Positions 1 through 4,257 of a stretch of DNA of 4,318 bases are shown here, in pieces; position 1 is the first letter of the stretch; each line of letters begins with the position of its first letter. Where the stretch lies: the IMG/VR virus record IMGVR_UViG_2698536395_000002; one strand, given 5' to 3'. The position numbers and the translations under genes are program-made. The notes below the pieces were generated by a model. The model ran no database searches and was not told the DNA's origin. It saw only the letters and a list, made by a program, of their open reading frames with translations. The stretch is from a virus. Its lineage: Duplodnaviria; Heunggongvirae; Uroviricota; Caudoviricetes.

Positions 1-101
1 AATACATTGAGATTTTCTACAATCGTCAGCGTCGTCACTCTCGTCTGGGGAATATCTCCCCGGCAGCCTTCAGGGAAAAATATCATCAGATGGCTGCTTA
101 A
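1..101 (+). CDS. IS3-family transposase (OrfB-type), 3' end only; the 5' part lies outside the window
   Basis: Frame 3 is open from the window edge to TAA at 99-101 and translates to YIEIFYNRQRRHSRLGNISPAAFREKYHQMAA. The YNRQRRHS-LG-ISPAAF pattern is the conserved C-terminal signature of IS3-family DDE transposases (recollection; exact IS not identified). Confidence 0.7.
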   Translation, partial: YIEIFYNRQRRHSRLGNISPAAFREKYHQMAA

Positions 102-139
102 AAAAAGAACAAATGGTAGCGTCCGCTATTGCCAGTACA
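1..139 (+). mobile_element. Right end of an IS3-family insertion sequence, inserted into the phage int gene
   Basis: Transposase 3' end at 1-101, followed by about 38 bp ending in ...CCAGTACA at 139 (IS3-family ends are 5'-TG...CA-3'). Int homology on the opposite strand stops at this point (around codon 77). The exact terminus is inferred, +/- a few bp. Confidence 0.65.
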
Positions 140-370
140 CCTCAGAGTGATTGCGTCACCGCCTTTAATTCTGTCTATCAGTGATTTGCGTCCGCTGTCT
201 GAGAGTAACTCAATATTGGCCTGTATTGCTTCAGTGATTGCTATCCTCCTGTCTCGGCCTAATCCAAACTCTTTACCCGTCCTTGGGTCCCTGTAGCAGT
301 AATATCCATTGTTTCTTATATAAAGGTTAGGGGGTAAATCCCGGCGCTCATGACTTCGCCTTCTTCCCAT
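98..370 (-). pseudogene. int: Integrase truncated by IS insertion: N-terminal arm-binding domain of a lambda/HK022-type tyrosine integrase (about 77 native codons) fused to 13 IS-derived codons
   Basis: ORF begins MGRRRSHERRDLPPNLYIRNNGYYCYRDPRTGKEFGLGRDRRIAITEAIQANIEL, which matches the lambda Int N-terminus as recalled. The next stretch, LSDSGRKSLIDRIKGGDAITL, resembles HK022-type Int. Homology is then lost (RCTGNSGRYHLFFF*) where the reading frame enters the IS end. Full-length Int is about 356 aa; this ORF is 90 aa. The 5' end overlaps xis by 23 bp, as in lambda. Confidence 0.9.
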
Positions 371-566
371 TTCTGATCCTCTTCAAAAGGCTACCTGTTA
401 CTGGTCGATTTAAGTCAACCTTTACCGCTGATTCGTGGAACAGATACTCTCTGCCATCCTTAACCGGAGGAGGGAATATCCTGCATTCGCGCACCCATCG
501 ACGAACTGTTTCAAGGCTTCTTGGGCGTCGCTGGCGAGCGTTCCACTCCTGAAGTGTCAAGTACAT
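348..566 (-). CDS. xis: Excisionase Xis (72 aa), apparently intact
   Basis: Translation MYLTLQEWNARQRRPRSLETVRRWVRECRIFPPPVKDGREYLFHESAVKVDLNRPVTGSLLKRIRNGKKAKS is essentially the lambda Xis sequence as recalled. GGAG lies 8 nt upstream of the ATG; the 3' end overlaps the int start. Confidence 0.95.
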   Translation of the reverse strand: MYLTLQEWNARQRRPRSLETVRRWVRECRIFPPPVKDGREYLFHESAVKVDLNRPVTGSLLKRIRNGKKAKS

Positions 567-592: not shown

Positions 593-615
593 TAAAAAAC
601 CGCCATCAGGCGGCT
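591..615 (-). terminator. Intrinsic (rho-independent) terminator for leftward transcription, overlapping the stop codon of the orf55-like gene
   Basis: Minus-strand RNA would read GCCGCC-UGAU-GGCGG followed by UUUUUUAUU. Stem is at plus 600-604 / 609-613, loop 605-608 (contains the TGA stop), T-tract at 592-599. Confidence 0.6.
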
Positions 616-773
616 TGGTGTTCTTTCAGTTCTTCAATTCGAATATTGGTTACGTCTGCATGTGCTATCTGCGCCCATATCATCCAGTGGTCATAGCAGT
701 CGTTGATGTCCTCTGCTTCGATAACTCTGTTGAATGGTTCTCCATTCAATTCACCTGTGACTCGGAAGTGCAT
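606..773 (-). CDS. Small hypothetical protein, 55 aa; homologue of the lambda orf between xis and ea8.5 (orf55-like)
   Basis: ATG at 771-773; protein MHFRVTGELNGEPFNRVIEAEDINDCYDHWMIWAQIAHADVTNIRIEELKEHQAA. The six-frame track extends it to a TTG at 788, but the ATG start matches the lambda orf as recalled. Stop TGA sits in the terminator loop. Confidence 0.75.
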   Translation of the reverse strand: MHFRVTGELNGEPFNRVIEAEDINDCYDHWMIWAQIAHADVTNIRIEELKEHQAA

Positions 774-808
774 TTGTGATTTCCCCAAAAGATGCTTGAG
801 TGCGCTTC

Positions 809-1108
809 TTATTCGATTCGCACACCTGGTATTTCGCCTTTTGAAATGGCTAAGTCATAAATTTGCGCAGCACTATACCCATCTCGCATCCATGAATCTA
901 AGGCGCGAATAGCCTCGCTACGCTTTTTATCTTCTCTTTCATTTTTGATATCAACGAGGACATCAACGCAATTAAGGCATATGTGGATTTTGTCCTTACA
1001 TTCGATCATGGCAGCTTTACCATGATTTCCGCCACACAGTGAGCATAAATCTTCAGGGTCTGGCTGGTATTTCTGTAACGTTAAAGGGTTGAATGTTGAA
1101 CAGGCCAT
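809..1108 (-). CDS. Hypothetical zinc-ribbon protein (about 99 aa) with CxxC-x11-C-x6-CxxC motif; function unknown
   Basis: ORF open from 1120; preferred start is the ATG at 1106-1108, preceded by GGAGATGATT (SD, 6-nt spacer). Cys pairs C22/C25 and C44/C47 plus C37/H42 (numbered from that start) suggest a treble-clef or zinc-ribbon fold. Stop TAA at 809-811. Confidence 0.7.
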   Translation of the reverse strand: MACSTFNPLTLQKYQPDPEDLCSLCGGNHGKAAMIECKDKIHICLNCVDVLVDIKNEREDKKRSEAIRALDSWMRDGYSAAQIYDLAISKGEIPGVRIE

Positions 1109-1120
1109 AATCATCTCCAT

Positions 1121-1145: not shown

Positions 1146-1265
1146 CAGATAAAAGAAATCCCCGTCAGTGCGAGGATTGTTATTGTCTTTTCTTCGTGCA
1201 TTTGTCGCACTTTCGGCACCATCCAGATAGGCACATCCGTCCGCAATTAACACATATAGGCCACA

Positions 1266-1544
1266 TCATTTTTCCTCTTTTGGTTTATGAATCTGAATGG
1301 TCATGCCGCTTTGAGTGGTGACTACAATGACATAACCAGGCTGAAGACTGTTAAGATTGAATGCTTCGTAAAACGAATCCAAGGCCAGCGCTTTTTTATT
1401 CTTTCGGTTCCACCAACGCCATCCCTTGCTACAGGCTACACTGACAATCCACTGCCCACTCCTGTAAGCCATATAAAACCAGATGAGCAAAACCTGAAGG
1501 AATGCTATCCAGTCAATAATCGTATATTTCGCGAAGGAGTCCAT
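1266..1544 (-). CDS. Small predicted membrane protein (92 aa): one hydrophobic transmembrane-like segment followed by a basic Trp-rich patch
   Basis: ATG at 1542-1544 is preceded by AGGAGG (7-nt spacer) and overlaps the upstream TGA (TGATG). Hydrophobic stretch YTIIDWIAFLQVLLIWFYMAY, then KGWRWWNRKNKK. Stop TGA at 1266-1268. Confidence 0.7.
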   Translation of the reverse strand: MDSFAKYTIIDWIAFLQVLLIWFYMAYRSGQWIVSVACSKGWRWWNRKNKKALALDSFYEAFNLNSLQPGYVIVVTTQSGMTIQIHKPKEEK

Positions 1545-2131
1545 CACTTCACCTCCTGCTGCGGTGCTGCTGGCATTTCACGCCAGTGCGTAACTGAGTG
1601 CGGATCCGGATATTCGGTGCCATCATCCCAGCGATTGCCATTCCACATTGCAGACCACATCTCACCGTCTTCATACATGACCATTACCGGAATTAACTTA
1701 TCCGGCATTCGCTCACTACAGCATATCCAACCATCCGGAGTTACCGGAGAGTTGCCCGATAGCGCATTACGCAATCGCTCCAGCTTCACGTATTCCTGAA
1801 CCCTGTTTCCGTCGCATGCCTGAAGCCATTGCGCAGCCTTTTGCGCATCAGTGTGAAAGGCACAAGTGCGACCGTCATCAAATTGCATTTCGTAGAGGTC
1901 AGCAACTTGTTCAAACTGCGTATGTTGTGACTTGTAAGTTTGGCTTACAGGTTCGGCACCATGAAGCATGGCGGCGCGGAGTTTCTGTATCTCCCGTGCC
2001 ATTATTGCGGCCTGACGAGGAGTGAACATATCACCTGCAATAATTCTGTTTAGTTCCTCGTCAGTGAACTCATAATCATCAGGAACATTGTGAACCTCAG
2101 CATAAAGAGGCTTTTTTGTAGAAATGGTCAT
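1544..2131 (-). CDS. Phage protein with a C-terminal DUF551-like domain (195 aa)
   Basis: ATG at 2129-2131 overlaps the upstream stop (ATGA); GGAGG upstream. The C-terminus GWICCSERMPDKLIPVMVMYEDGEMWSAMWNGNRWDDGTEYPDPHSVTHWREMPAAP fits the DUF551 signature (W..P...V.V..........W.........THW.E.P, recollection). Confidence 0.8.
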   Translation of the reverse strand: MTISTKKPLYAEVHNVPDDYEFTDEELNRIIAGDMFTPRQAAIMAREIQKLRAAMLHGAEPVSQTYKSQHTQFEQVADLYEMQFDDGRTCAFHTDAQKAAQWLQACDGNRVQEYVKLERLRNALSGNSPVTPDGWICCSERMPDKLIPVMVMYEDGEMWSAMWNGNRWDDGTEYPDPHSVTHWREMPAAPQQEVK

Positions 2132-2745
2132 CGTAAAACATCCTCCGCACTTACCAGTCCGTTTCGCAAAAGATAATCCATCGCCCTATCAGGTAATTTG
2201 CAATCAGGTTTTGCTTTTTTCAGTTGGCTGACCAATTGTTTAACCAGCATTGTTAATTCGATCACCTGGTAGCGCGGCAATGGTGAATTATCGGATTTGC
2301 CCTGACTGTCATCACTGCATGAATGCCCTTCCAGCCAGGCCAATGCTTGTCGCATGAAATACGCAATATGTTTGCCGTGGTAATCGTCTTCATCGATGTG
2401 AAAAGCGATACTGCGGATGTATTCTATTGCATTTTCAATGGCCTCCAACGCTATCGGCGCTGGCGGTGCGGTATAAAACTTCGTCCCCAGCGGCAACAAC
2501 TTCATCGCTTTTTCTCCCTTAATGATGCGATAAGTTGATTTCCCGCCAAGGTCTACCGTTCCATCCATAACAAGGCCGAGTCGCTTCTCTGAAACCTCAC
2601 CAATAGGCTCTGCTTCCAGCGATGCCAGAGCAATTCGTGCCAGTTCTTCCGCTTCTTCTGCTGGCAGTACAACGTTGCTACCAGGTCCGTATGTTTCGCG
2701 CCACTGCTTGATTGTCAGTAGTCGCTCTTTGGTAATAGTGGTCAT
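2128..2745 (-). CDS. Hypothetical protein, 205 aa, no recognisable domain
   Basis: ATG at 2743-2745 preceded by AGAGGA (6-nt spacer) and lying 3 nt after the upstream TAA. The 3' end overlaps the next start by 4 bp. An acidic His-rich patch HIDEDDYHGKH is present. Confidence 0.75.
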   Translation of the reverse strand: MTTITKERLLTIKQWRETYGPGSNVVLPAEEAEELARIALASLEAEPIGEVSEKRLGLVMDGTVDLGGKSTYRIIKGEKAMKLLPLGTKFYTAPPAPIALEAIENAIEYIRSIAFHIDEDDYHGKHIAYFMRQALAWLEGHSCSDDSQGKSDNSPLPRYQVIELTMLVKQLVSQLKKAKPDCKLPDRAMDYLLRNGLVSAEDVLR

Positions 2746-2748
2746 GGG

Positions 2749-2937
2749 TTATCCTCTTAGCGCCACAACGCGCACTTCTGGGTCAAAAGATGGTGCATTC
2801 TCATCTGTAACATCAGCAACATGACCTACAAAGTCGTTATACTCACCCTCTGATTGGTCATAGCCCTGCCAGACCACGACAGCCTCAGGAGGCATTTTTC
2901 TGAGCTTGCTGATTAACTGCCTAACCGTCAGCGACAT
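2749..2937 (-). CDS. Small hypothetical protein, 62 aa
   Basis: ATG at 2935-2937 preceded by AAAGGAG and lying 1 nt after the Ea22-like TGA stop. Protein MSLTVRQLISKLRKMPPEAVVVWQGYDQSEGEYNDFVGHVADVTDENAPSFDPEVRVVALRG. The longer 103-aa version in the track would overlap the Ea22-like 3' end in another frame, so the shorter coupled start is preferred. Confidence 0.6.
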   Translation of the reverse strand: MSLTVRQLISKLRKMPPEAVVVWQGYDQSEGEYNDFVGHVADVTDENAPSFDPEVRVVALRG

Positions 2938-2938
2938 C

Positions 2939-3607
2939 TCACTCTCCTTTGATGCGAATGCCAGTAGCGCGGATAGATTTCCATTGTTTCCACATTCGGT
3001 TGAAGTCTGTGCCTGATAAGGTTGCGTTACGGTATCCAGTTTCGGTACGCAATCCTTCAAGCGTCGATTTGGAGATACAAATTGAATGCATTACCCATGA
3101 TTCAAACAAATCACGCTCCCGGGCTTCGCAACTTTGCTTACTCATCTCTTCGATACGTTCAGCCATCGCAGCACACTCTTCAAAGTTGCTTAATGCTTTT
3201 CGCTCCCATTCGGCGCATTGTTTTCCAAGCTCTGCAATCAGCTTGTCTTTGCCTTCCAGCTCAACACGCAGTTTCCCTACCGTTAGCGCAATATCCTCGT
3301 TCTCCTGATCGCGGCGTTTGATGTATTGCTGGTTTCTTTCCAGTTCATCCAGTAATGCCAGCACAGTAGCCGGATTGGCTGCGGCGATGAATTCAGCATT
3401 GGCCTGCTGTTCCATTTGGAAATCTTCATCGAAACCGCTTTCTGGATGTGCTCCTTCAATTCTGCAAATGGGAAGATATCCAACAACTTCACGATGAATT
3501 AACGCATCATCACAATCAAATCGGCTCTCTCCATATTCGAGCGACCATACACCACACGTTGCTTTTTCTGCCTTGGCACGCAGTGCCTGATAGTCAATCA
3601 GGCTCAC
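2939..3607 (-). CDS. ea22: Ea22-like protein (222 aa), a mosaic variant with a conserved coiled-coil core
   Basis: GTG start at 3605-3607 preceded by AAAGGAGG and overlapping the upstream TGA (GTGA). N-terminus MSLIDYQALRAKAEKA..., core LLDELERNQQYIKRRDQENEDIALTVGKLRVELE and C-terminal IRIKGE* all match lambda Ea22 as recalled (which also starts at GTG). The segments between are divergent. Confidence 0.85.
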   Translation of the reverse strand: MSLIDYQALRAKAEKATCGVWSLEYGESRFDCDDALIHREVVGYLPICRIEGAHPESGFDEDFQMEQQANAEFIAAANPATVLALLDELERNQQYIKRRDQENEDIALTVGKLRVELEGKDKLIAELGKQCAEWERKALSNFEECAAMAERIEEMSKQSCEARERDLFESWVMHSICISKSTLEGLRTETGYRNATLSGTDFNRMWKQWKSIRATGIRIKGE

Positions 3608-4191
3608 TGGTTGCCTCCTTTGCGAATCTGTTCCGCCCATTCTTCAAGGGATTTCTCCGCATATTCACCAGACAGGCCATCAATCGGATGCGGTTCATTA
3701 GCCAACTCTTCTTTCGCTGACAGAATCATGCGCGTAACATCGAAAACTTCACGTAAAGACTTATTGATAAATCCGTGGTTGAAAGCAGCAGCAAGACGGC
3801 TTGCGGCATAGTTAATACCCTCGTTGCGTGCTTCCGCACGTACTTCAGCCAGGAAAGCATCGGTGGCTGGGGTTTTGATTTCGTTAAGCGCATCACTGAA
3901 TAAACCACGCTCCATACCTAGCTCTGCTTCGTAATCGGCATCGAATGCAGCGTCTTTGCAGAACTTCTTCATCCCCGCACTCTCCGCTGCCAGCGCCGCG
4001 CACTTGGCCTCAAGGTTATCAATCGTGATTCCAGCAGAACGACACTCCCGCAACGCCGTTTCCAGTTTTGATTCAAGTTCACCGAACTTACGGACAAGAT
4101 ATTCAGCGTTTGTTTCGTTAACCTTTAGATCTCGTGGGATGCATTTACCTTTCAGAAAACCATCCATCTCAATTAGTGACATTTGTTTCAT
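3604..4191 (-). CDS. Hypothetical protein (about 195 aa), largely alpha-helical by composition, no recognisable domain
   Basis: ORF open to a GTG at 4209; preferred start is ATG at 4189-4191 (GGAG/GGGA upstream), giving MKQMSLIEMDGFLKGK.... Stop TGA at 3604-3606 overlaps the Ea22-like GTG start. Start codon choice is uncertain. Confidence 0.7.
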   Translation of the reverse strand: MKQMSLIEMDGFLKGKCIPRDLKVNETNAEYLVRKFGELESKLETALRECRSAGITIDNLEAKCAALAAESAGMKKFCKDAAFDADYEAELGMERGLFSDALNEIKTPATDAFLAEVRAEARNEGINYAASRLAAAFNHGFINKSLREVFDVTRMILSAKEELANEPHPIDGLSGEYAEKSLEEWAEQIRKGGNQ

Positions 4192-4257
4192 TTTTTCCCA
4201 CTCCGCCACATAGCATTCAGATATTTGTTGTCATTAACAGAACCGAAACTCTTTCTC

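Follow-up and report, generated by a model that had tools for sequence, protein, structure and literature searches.

A cassette of four open reading frames (ORFs), designated A62, B205, C195 and D92 (62, 205, 195 and 92 amino acids (aa), respectively), was analysed in a 4,318-nucleotide (nt) stretch of viral DNA, IMG/VR record IMGVR_UViG_2698536395_000002, which is hereafter called the window. The window was 100% identical to the Shiga toxin 1a (Stx1a)-converting phage Stx1a_11KH263 (LC744179) and 99.9% identical to phage H19J from E. coli O26 strain H19 (AJ236875, GenBank 1999). The DNA comes from a lambdoid, Stx1a-converting prophage of the H19J type in E. coli O26 and represents its exo-xis ("ea") region. 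An earlier note on this DNA had described the four ORFs as a tightly coupled cassette at the position that lambda gives to ea8.5, and had proposed that the coupling marks a multi-component module. We conclude, with a probability of about 80%, that the cassette consists of mosaic modules which assort independently and were brought together recently in one lineage, and that it is no dedicated four-part system. The ORFs have been in GenBank since 1999, with three of the four annotated in the H19J entry (orf189, orf688 and orf588), and the mosaicism of the exo-xis or "ea" region in Stx phages is published; the region has been called "highly mosaic" (PMC8614690).

The cassette and its position in the phage genome

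All genes of the window are encoded on the minus strand, and the cassette is placed on the leftward early strand between an ea22/ead homologue and xis-int, as shown in Table 1. Positions 165–790 of the window align to int-xis-orf55 of lambda at 94%, positions 1110–1183 (the hairpin block) are 94.6% identical to the lambda DNA just downstream of ea8.5, and positions 2936–2964, the 29 nt around the ea22 stop, are 100% identical to lambda. Because lambda homology flanks both sides, window segment 1184–2935 replaces the lambda ea8.5 segment, and the position of the four ORFs given in the earlier note was confirmed. Its assignment of the cassette to the early-left accessory region of a lambdoid phage was likewise borne out by the ea22-xis-int flanks and by the gene order of lambda and of phage Gally. 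The block 1110–1183 forms the conserved right-hand border of the variable slot. No protein in the window resembles Ea8.5 or matches the lambda ea8.5 segment, and PDB sequence searches detected no Ea8.5 homologue for the four proteins or for a 103-aa ORF nearby. By similarity, none of them belongs to the Ea8.5 family (homeodomain/zinc-finger fold).

The four ORFs exist with the coordinates and sizes that had been reported, and their junctions, TGA-g-ATG, TAA-ccc-ATG, ATGA and TGATG, each with a Shine-Dalgarno (SD) sequence, were found exactly as described. On the minus strand, the junction between the Ea22-like gene and A62 reads GAGAGTGAgATG, and that between A62 and B205 reads GGATAAcccATG. 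B205 and C195 share an ATGA overlap of 4 nt (CGATGACC), and C195 and D92 overlap by 1 nt (AAGTGATGG). The SD motifs GGAG, GAGGA, GGAGGA and AGGAGG sit 5–9 nt upstream of the four starts. This is the layout of coupled pairs, in which stop and start overlap or are at most 3 nt apart and the upstream ORF contains the SD. All four ORFs match PHROG families (E 1e-23 to 1e-40), and the variation of D92 by codon position is 12/7/41, a third-position bias that indicates purifying selection. From this bias and the PHROG matches, the cassette ORFs are real genes.

Similar packing is common in this type of genome. In lambda, 32 of the 63 same-strand junctions (51%) overlap or are at most 3 nt apart, 15 junctions are of the ATGA type, and one run comprises eight consecutive tight junctions. 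The run of tight junctions in the window is not above chance for a lambda-type genome. The tight packing also extends upstream of the cassette, where GTGA joins the EaE-like and Ea22-like genes. Within 1266–2937, neither a sigma-70-like promoter on the coding strand nor an internal terminator-like site was detected. The predicted accessibility of the start sites was 0.29–0.58 and did not differ from that of other starts in the window, and these RNA-accessibility estimates gave no signal for or against coupling.

Table 1. Features of the 4,318-nt window, beginning with the four cassette genes.
Feature	Position	Strand	Remarks
A62	2749..2937	-	62 aa; phrog_6161, E 4e-23
B205	2128..2745	-	205 aa, "Eaa"-type; phrog_660, phrog_60, phrog_924
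C195	1544..2131	-	195 aa, DUF551; head matches phrog_31417
D92	1266..1544	-	92 aa, DUF4752
Conserved mosaic block across the B205/C195 junction	~1945..2465	-	B205 aa ~95–205 and C195 aa 1–~62
EaE-like gene	3604..4209	-	201 aa; phrog_614, E 1e-95; 38% identity to Gally EaE, E 4e-34
Ead/Ea22-like (EaD-like) gene	2939..3607	-	Pfam Ead_Ea22, E 5.8e-29
Cys-rich 28-codon ORF	1180..1266	-	MWPICVNCGRMCLSGWCRKCDKCTKKRQ; TGATG overlap with the D92 stop
Two tandem terminator-like hairpins	1178→1157 and 1146→1127	-	directly after the cassette
Zinc-finger-like 103-aa ORF	809–1120	-	CxxC...CxxC motif; phrog_3680, E 2.5e-69
Homologue of lambda orf55	606–788	-	
Further terminator-like hairpin	616→597	-	
xis	348–566	-	
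int N-terminus	98–370	-	cut by the IS600 end
IS600 end	1–145	+	99.3% identity to the IS600 annotated in O26:H11 FWSEC0001

Distribution and mosaicism of the four genes

Of 5,426 complete E. coli genomes, 2,336 carried some part of the 1,672-bp cassette. Only 60, including strain H19 and O26:H11 strain 11368, carried at least 80% of it, and every one of these copies was 100.0% identical. This identity assigns the 60 copies to a single recent O26/H19J Stx1a lineage. Among 50,697 phage records, the complete four-gene set occurred in three, likewise at 100.0% identity. A62 matched three records, all with at least 80% coverage, and D92 matched 57, again all at this coverage. B205 matched 203 records and C195 matched 257, of which 3 and 21, respectively, were covered to at least 80%. 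All four genes were present in 5 of 80 IMG/VR contigs anchored on D92, B205 or C195, and in 5 of 21 anchored on A62. Co-occurrence was first scored at thresholds of at least 50% identity and at least 80% coverage, which hid the linkage between B205 and C195 described below, and the scoring was then redone without cutoffs.

Between the coiled-coil block of Ea22 and the hairpin block, 85 contigs contained 63 distinct fillings of 661–3,806 bp, made up of one to six ORFs that were combined in almost every way. The slot therefore has the mosaic gene content, varying in number and kind among related phages, that is typical of the variable exo-xis region. Exchange also occurs within genes: breakpoints were located inside B205 at ~2251–2300, 2451–2500 and 2601–2650, and inside C195 at ~1551–1600, 1701–1790 and 1951–2000. 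Co-occurrence of the components across diverged genomes, as expected of a defence or anti-defence operon, was not observed. The proposal that tight coupling marks a four-component module was not supported, since the set exists only in one 100%-identical lineage and its pieces are separate elsewhere. The genes do not co-occur as a unit across prophage genomes, and their independent occurrence is the outcome that the earlier note itself had named as speaking against its proposal.

It had been suggested that all four genes form one module for host takeover, exclusion or anti-defence, with a stoichiometry fixed by translational coupling. The succession of four tight junctions, all provided with an SD of their own, agrees with such a module, as do the intact set in the 60 O26-type genomes and the putative single transcript, predicted from the lack of internal promoter and terminator signals. 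However, the 60 identical copies count as one lineage, each gene or segment is found without the others elsewhere, half of the junctions in lambda are packed equally tightly, IS600 disrupts D92 in some O26 genomes, and nothing was found among 5,027 defence-system models. We therefore regard a dedicated four-part module as highly improbable.

The absence of an assigned function for any of the four proteins, which the earlier note had stated, was reproduced with Pfam, where the matches are to domains of unknown function (DUFs), and with PHROG, NCBIfam, PADLOC and the literature. NCBIfam gave no match for the four proteins. In the PADLOC search, A62, B205 and D92 had no match, and C195 gave sub-threshold noise (E 0.004–0.04). 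PDB sequence searches of all four proteins gave no meaningful match.

Module structure of the cassette proteins

In B205, an N-terminal EaA module (aa 1–~100) is followed by a middle part that is conserved (~100–163) and by a short tail (164–205), which occupies the place where relatives carry DUF551; its UniRef name is "Eaa protein". Residues 1–163 showed 90–94% identity to DUF551 proteins of 276–352 aa, and residues 1–101 showed 95% identity to the N-terminus of EaA from phage Gally. C195 has a head that is conserved (aa 1–~62), then a variable middle part and a DUF551 domain (aa 134–191), which was assigned to PF04448 with 63.5 bits against a cut-off of 22 (E 3.3e-17). In other phages, C195 aa ~45–195 are fused behind the N-termini of Ea22 (P0236, P0255) or of EaA (Gally EaA, P0221), and P22 eaa is 41% identical to C195 over aa 70–190. 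As single chains, Gally EaA corresponds to B205[1–101] (95%) plus C195[52–195] (60%), P0221 to B205[1–69] plus C195[30–194], P0150 to B205[1–163] plus C195[129–194], and P0255 to Ea22-like[1–135] plus C195[43–195]. By these alignments, B205 and C195 correspond to the N-terminal and the C-terminal half of an EaA-type protein, which other phages encode as one chain. In the window, the homologous parts do not form a single EaA-type polypeptide and are split into two ORFs with the 4-nt overlap.

The two genes were linked at their junction. The B205 tail was directly followed by the C195 head in 14 of 16 distinct junctions, and it was located upstream of the C195 head in 14 of 14. The linked part is the block across the junction (Table 1), which kept 91–100% identity per 10-aa block in 10 distinct arrangements. 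On both sides of it the flanks were swapped, and the N-terminus of B205 and the C-terminus of C195 fell to 10–60% identity. The breakpoint clusters at ~1951–2000 and ~2451–2500 border this block, with recombination at the flanking linkers, ...TAPPAPIA... in B205 and ...GAEPVSQ... in C195. Because only this block is near-identical and its flanks are swapped, the linkage is the co-inheritance of a short block, not a deep conservation of two whole genes.

Alternatively, B205 and C195 could be a two-component unit, i.e., a naturally split EaA-type DUF551 protein whose halves, synthesised in similar quantities through translational coupling, would reassemble, with A62 and D92 as unrelated neighbours. 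The single chains of Gally EaA, P0221 and P0150, which join B205-type to C195-type parts, argue for this possibility, together with the adjacency of tail and head and a junction that alternates between a 4-nt overlap and a 2-nt gap, and is tight in both variants. On the other hand, the linked part is a near-identical block of ~520 bp, which may reflect only a lack of recombination inside it, the B205 N-terminus and the C195 C-terminus are freely swapped, and the two proteins have no detectable similarity to each other. Given the fusion proteins, a partnership of B205 and C195 is plausible but, in our estimation, less likely than not. For the multi-component module proposed before, this pair is the only part that retains some support; separate assortment was seen for A62, for D92 and for segments within the B205 and C195 genes.

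Two further observations concern the ends of B205. The tail (aa 160–205, window 2128–2265) is 63% identical to the gp45/gp45.1 boundary stretch of N15, a linear plasmid-prophage, and therefore this small module circulates outside integrating lambdoid phages. The first 26 residues (window 2668–2745), MTTITKERLLTIKQWRETYGPGSNVV, recur at 85–100% identity at the start of otherwise different genes in well over 100 Stx-phage records, and the conserved 5' end of the B205 gene looks like a recombination joint. AlphaFold2 models, built from shallow alignments of near-identical sequences, were poor for both proteins: the predicted local distance difference test (pLDDT) score was 49.1 for B205 and 50.7 for C195 (~70 in the DUF551 part). 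Foldseek searches of the PDB with these poor models yielded nothing below E 0.1 and template modelling (TM) scores below 0.3. The Tudor domains of 53BP1, the top fold matches of C195, were rejected as not significant.

D92 belongs to DUF4752 (PF15944; aa 9–92, 121.6 bits against a cut-off of 27, E 1.4e-35), and its family comprises 47 clusters in 5.8 billion proteins. It has one N-terminal hydrophobic helix (aa 7–27) followed by a basic stretch, which suggests, by the positive-inside rule, that its C-terminal domain is cytoplasmic. WD40 matches to D92 in the PDB had no significant aligned stretch, look compositional and were discarded. In 72 of 73 contigs, the D92 start shared one base with the ORF directly upstream. 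These 73 ORFs fall into 49 protein clusters of 22 to 411 aa, and 72 of them end with ...(P/Q)QE(V/M/A)(K/N). In C195, the final codons CCG CAG CAG GAG GTG AAG TGA provide the SD and the stop/start overlap for D92. Since these end codons are shared by members of 49 clusters, the "coupled" junction is a portable 5' edge of the D92 module. This analysis of the upstream ORFs replaced regular-expression counts of conserved termini, which were too crude.

More diverged DUF4752 homologues (29–66% identity) were located in Mu-like phages, before ninB in a lambdoid nin region, in an Enterobacter prophage, where the gene sits behind a 379-aa protein, and in Salmonella phage SPN1S. In two loci (L255, 4330–4614; L257, 2868–3152; 64–66% identity), the gene lies right after a MuB-like AAA ATPase in the early region of Mu-like transposable phages, surroundings that differ strongly from the lambdoid ea region. 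By these contexts, D92 is an autonomous mobile gene for a small membrane protein.

We also considered that the DUF551 C-terminal domain and DUF4752 form a functional pair, a soluble effector with its membrane partner. A C195-like DUF551 C-terminus ends at the D92 start with the 1-nt overlap in 66 of 80 D92-anchored contigs, and the same arrangement is found in Gally, Stx2 phage 86, P27 and PA28. However, those D92 copies are at least 90% identical, and the adjacency can be co-inherited DNA. Moreover, no DUF551 protein precedes DUF4752 in the five contexts of greater divergence (29–66% identity), and most of the 257 phage records with C195-like sequences lack D92, which is present in 57 records. 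A functional pair of this kind is quite unlikely.

In E. coli O26:H11 FWSEC0001 and in strain 05_3471, IS600 is inserted inside D92 (L002, NZ_CP031922 1520078–1535016, locus 6001–7546), and D92 would therefore be dispensable in those O26 lysogens. In the same locus, window position ~586 is joined to a different integration module with a TorI-type excisionase and another integrase; the int/xis module was exchanged at the terminator near 597–616 in those O26 strains. This locus was rejected as a second independent prophage context, because its exo-xis region is that of the window, joined to another int/xis module and with D92 interrupted by IS600. Downstream of D92, the Cys-rich 28-codon ORF follows in ~50 of 80 related loci. 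Its variation by codon position (12/13/12) had no bias, and the variant codons were 2 synonymous versus 19 non-synonymous. From these patterns it was rejected as a fifth coupled gene or conserved micro-protein, and it is probably not a conserved gene.

A62 is acidic and belongs to a small family of ~60-aa proteins that stand alone; among 1.84 billion proteins, the family had 44 representative clusters, each of ~57–99 aa. It has no relatives in Pfam or in the PDB, including a PDB search with the family profile. Its homologues (77–92% identity) are always followed by an ORF after 2–3 nt. These ORFs differ in sequence and encode 93, 98, 198, 214, 228, 261, 274, 300 or 314 aa. The family motif W-x-D-H-D-Q/H...E is near-invariant, and D-H is kept in 37 of 41 representatives. 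In the window, residues 25–26 are G25-Y26, and the motif reads G-Y-D. Judged from the motif, this replacement may mean an altered or lost activity.

Among the neighbouring genes, the EaE-like gene is the first of the tightly packed run within the window. The Pfam match of the Ea22-like gene begins at residue 13 of the longer ORF, and a GTG that overlaps the EaE-like stop as GTGA (3604–3607) is the likely start. Its residues 1–118 are 90% identical to Gally EaD, and it has a coiled-coil block and the last 29 nt in common with lambda ea22. The 103-aa ORF lies between the orf55 homologue and the hairpin block, where lambda has nothing that corresponds to it; it showed only a weak match to the ClpX zinc-binding domain (E 0.015–0.05). 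The IS600 end codes for the transposase C-terminus, ...YIEIFYNRQRRHSRLGNISPAAFREKYHQMAA, followed by the stop. Since IS600 interrupts the lambda-type int, the integrase of this prophage copy is probably unable to excise it; the match of the intact phage LC744179 to the window starts only at position 144. No RNA family of Rfam was detected in the window.

Interpretation and comparison with known systems

For a juxtaposition of independent modules, the following course is proposed. The four ORFs would be read on the leftward early (pL) transcript, as suggested by their position and the lack of internal promoter and terminator signals. They would be translated from their own SD sites, and the stop/start overlaps may permit re-initiation. 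Recombination would occur within genes, where linkers are encoded, and at gene ends that are conserved, and B205 and C195 would each be completed by a piece of the one conserved block that carries their stop/start junction. Short conserved ends, consisting of the last codons, the SD and the stop/start overlap, would travel with the downstream module, and every junction would therefore be tight whatever the partner. That the junctions travel with individual modules is seen from the ORFs upstream of D92 and from the 2–3 nt spacing that A62 keeps before different genes. Stop/start overlaps that bring their own SD thus belong to the portable gene ends of lambdoid phages, and hence they are not readable as evidence of a multi-protein module. 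Most likely, each product would act alone as a non-essential modulator of host physiology or of phage development and the lysis-lysogeny balance. Such an individual role is proposed because it was shown for other exo-xis genes; among the published neighbours, Ea22 is pro-lysogenic, and orf60a, orf61 and orf63 are pro-lytic. The exo-xis genes influence prophage induction and hence the release of Shiga toxin, which gives them some medical relevance.

Several points weigh against this reading. The IMG/VR samples were anchored on the cassette genes themselves, with at most 80 loci each, and their frequencies are biased. The loose order Ea22, A62-like, EaA-type, DUF4752 recurs, and it was found once at real divergence (L248; A62 84%, DUF4752 45%). 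The B205 tail and the C195 head are linked as described above, fusion proteins join the bodies of both, and the pair may be a functional unit. The structure models of B205 and C195 are so poor that hidden relationships could escape them. Finally, the products could interact in this particular phage even without conserved linkage.

A bolder explanation is that the Ea22/EaD, EaA and DUF551 genes constitute a combinatorial domain-shuffling system under arms-race selection. The conserved gene ends and the AEPV- and APPAP-type linkers would then be built-in recombination joints that yield many chimeras, and B205 and C195 would be a split EaA that reassembles, e.g., as an exclusion, anti-defence or lysogeny-tuning factor. 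We consider this unlikely and prefer the juxtaposition of independent modules. The apparent use of linkers and conserved gene ends as recombination joints in EaA, Ea22 and DUF551 genes is worth following. The B205-C195 pair as a split EaA is the main lead for functional work, for which the widespread DUF551 and DUF4752 are modest targets.

Outside the exo-xis region, a parallel is offered by YfdS from the yfdQRST cluster of the CPS-53 prophage in E. coli K-12 (PMC4776307), likewise a DUF551 protein from a prophage accessory cluster with tight packing. The resemblance is limited to the DUF551 domain; YfdQ, YfdR and YfdT have no counterparts in the window. Overexpression of the yfd cluster affects replication initiation, and yfdS mutants, which lack the DUF551 protein, are sensitive to H2O2 (PMC4776307). 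Since DnaA was bound only by YfdR, and YfdS and YfdT were interchangeable (PMC4776307), this system provides no mechanism for DUF551.

For Stx phages, DUF551 has been termed a "portable domain"; it makes up the C-terminal domain of the variant Ea22_V2 (PMC10834534), in which an Ead_Ea22 N-terminus is followed by a coiled coil and DUF551. C195 aa ~43–195 are 86–93% identical to the C-terminal part of such Ead_Ea22+DUF551 proteins (P0236, P0255). In the window, in contrast, DUF551 is encoded by a separate gene with a 62-aa head, and the Ea22-like gene has another C-terminal region.

The lambdoid exo-xis region (ea22 - ea8.5 - orf55 - xis in lambda; also in 933W and phi24B; PMC8614690, PMC10834534) has the same strand and place as the cassette, and its distal content varies in number and kind (PMC8614690, PMC10834534). 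Lambda shares the flanks of the slot with the window at 94–100% identity, but it has the single ea8.5 where the window phage has four other genes, and it lacks the extra zinc-finger-like gene beyond the hairpins. The order in Gally (OV696608, P22-like), EaE - EaD - EaA - DUF4752 - orf55 homologue - ... - xis - int, is the same as in the window, with ~38% identity for EaE, ~90% for EaD, and 95% for both D92 and the orf55 homologue. For EaA, the identity is 95% over B205[1–101] and 57% over C195[45–195]. The Gally protein is one 267-aa chain, whereas in the window the conserved block with its stop/start overlap separates B205 from C195, and an additional gene, A62, stands between EaD and the N-terminal part of EaA.

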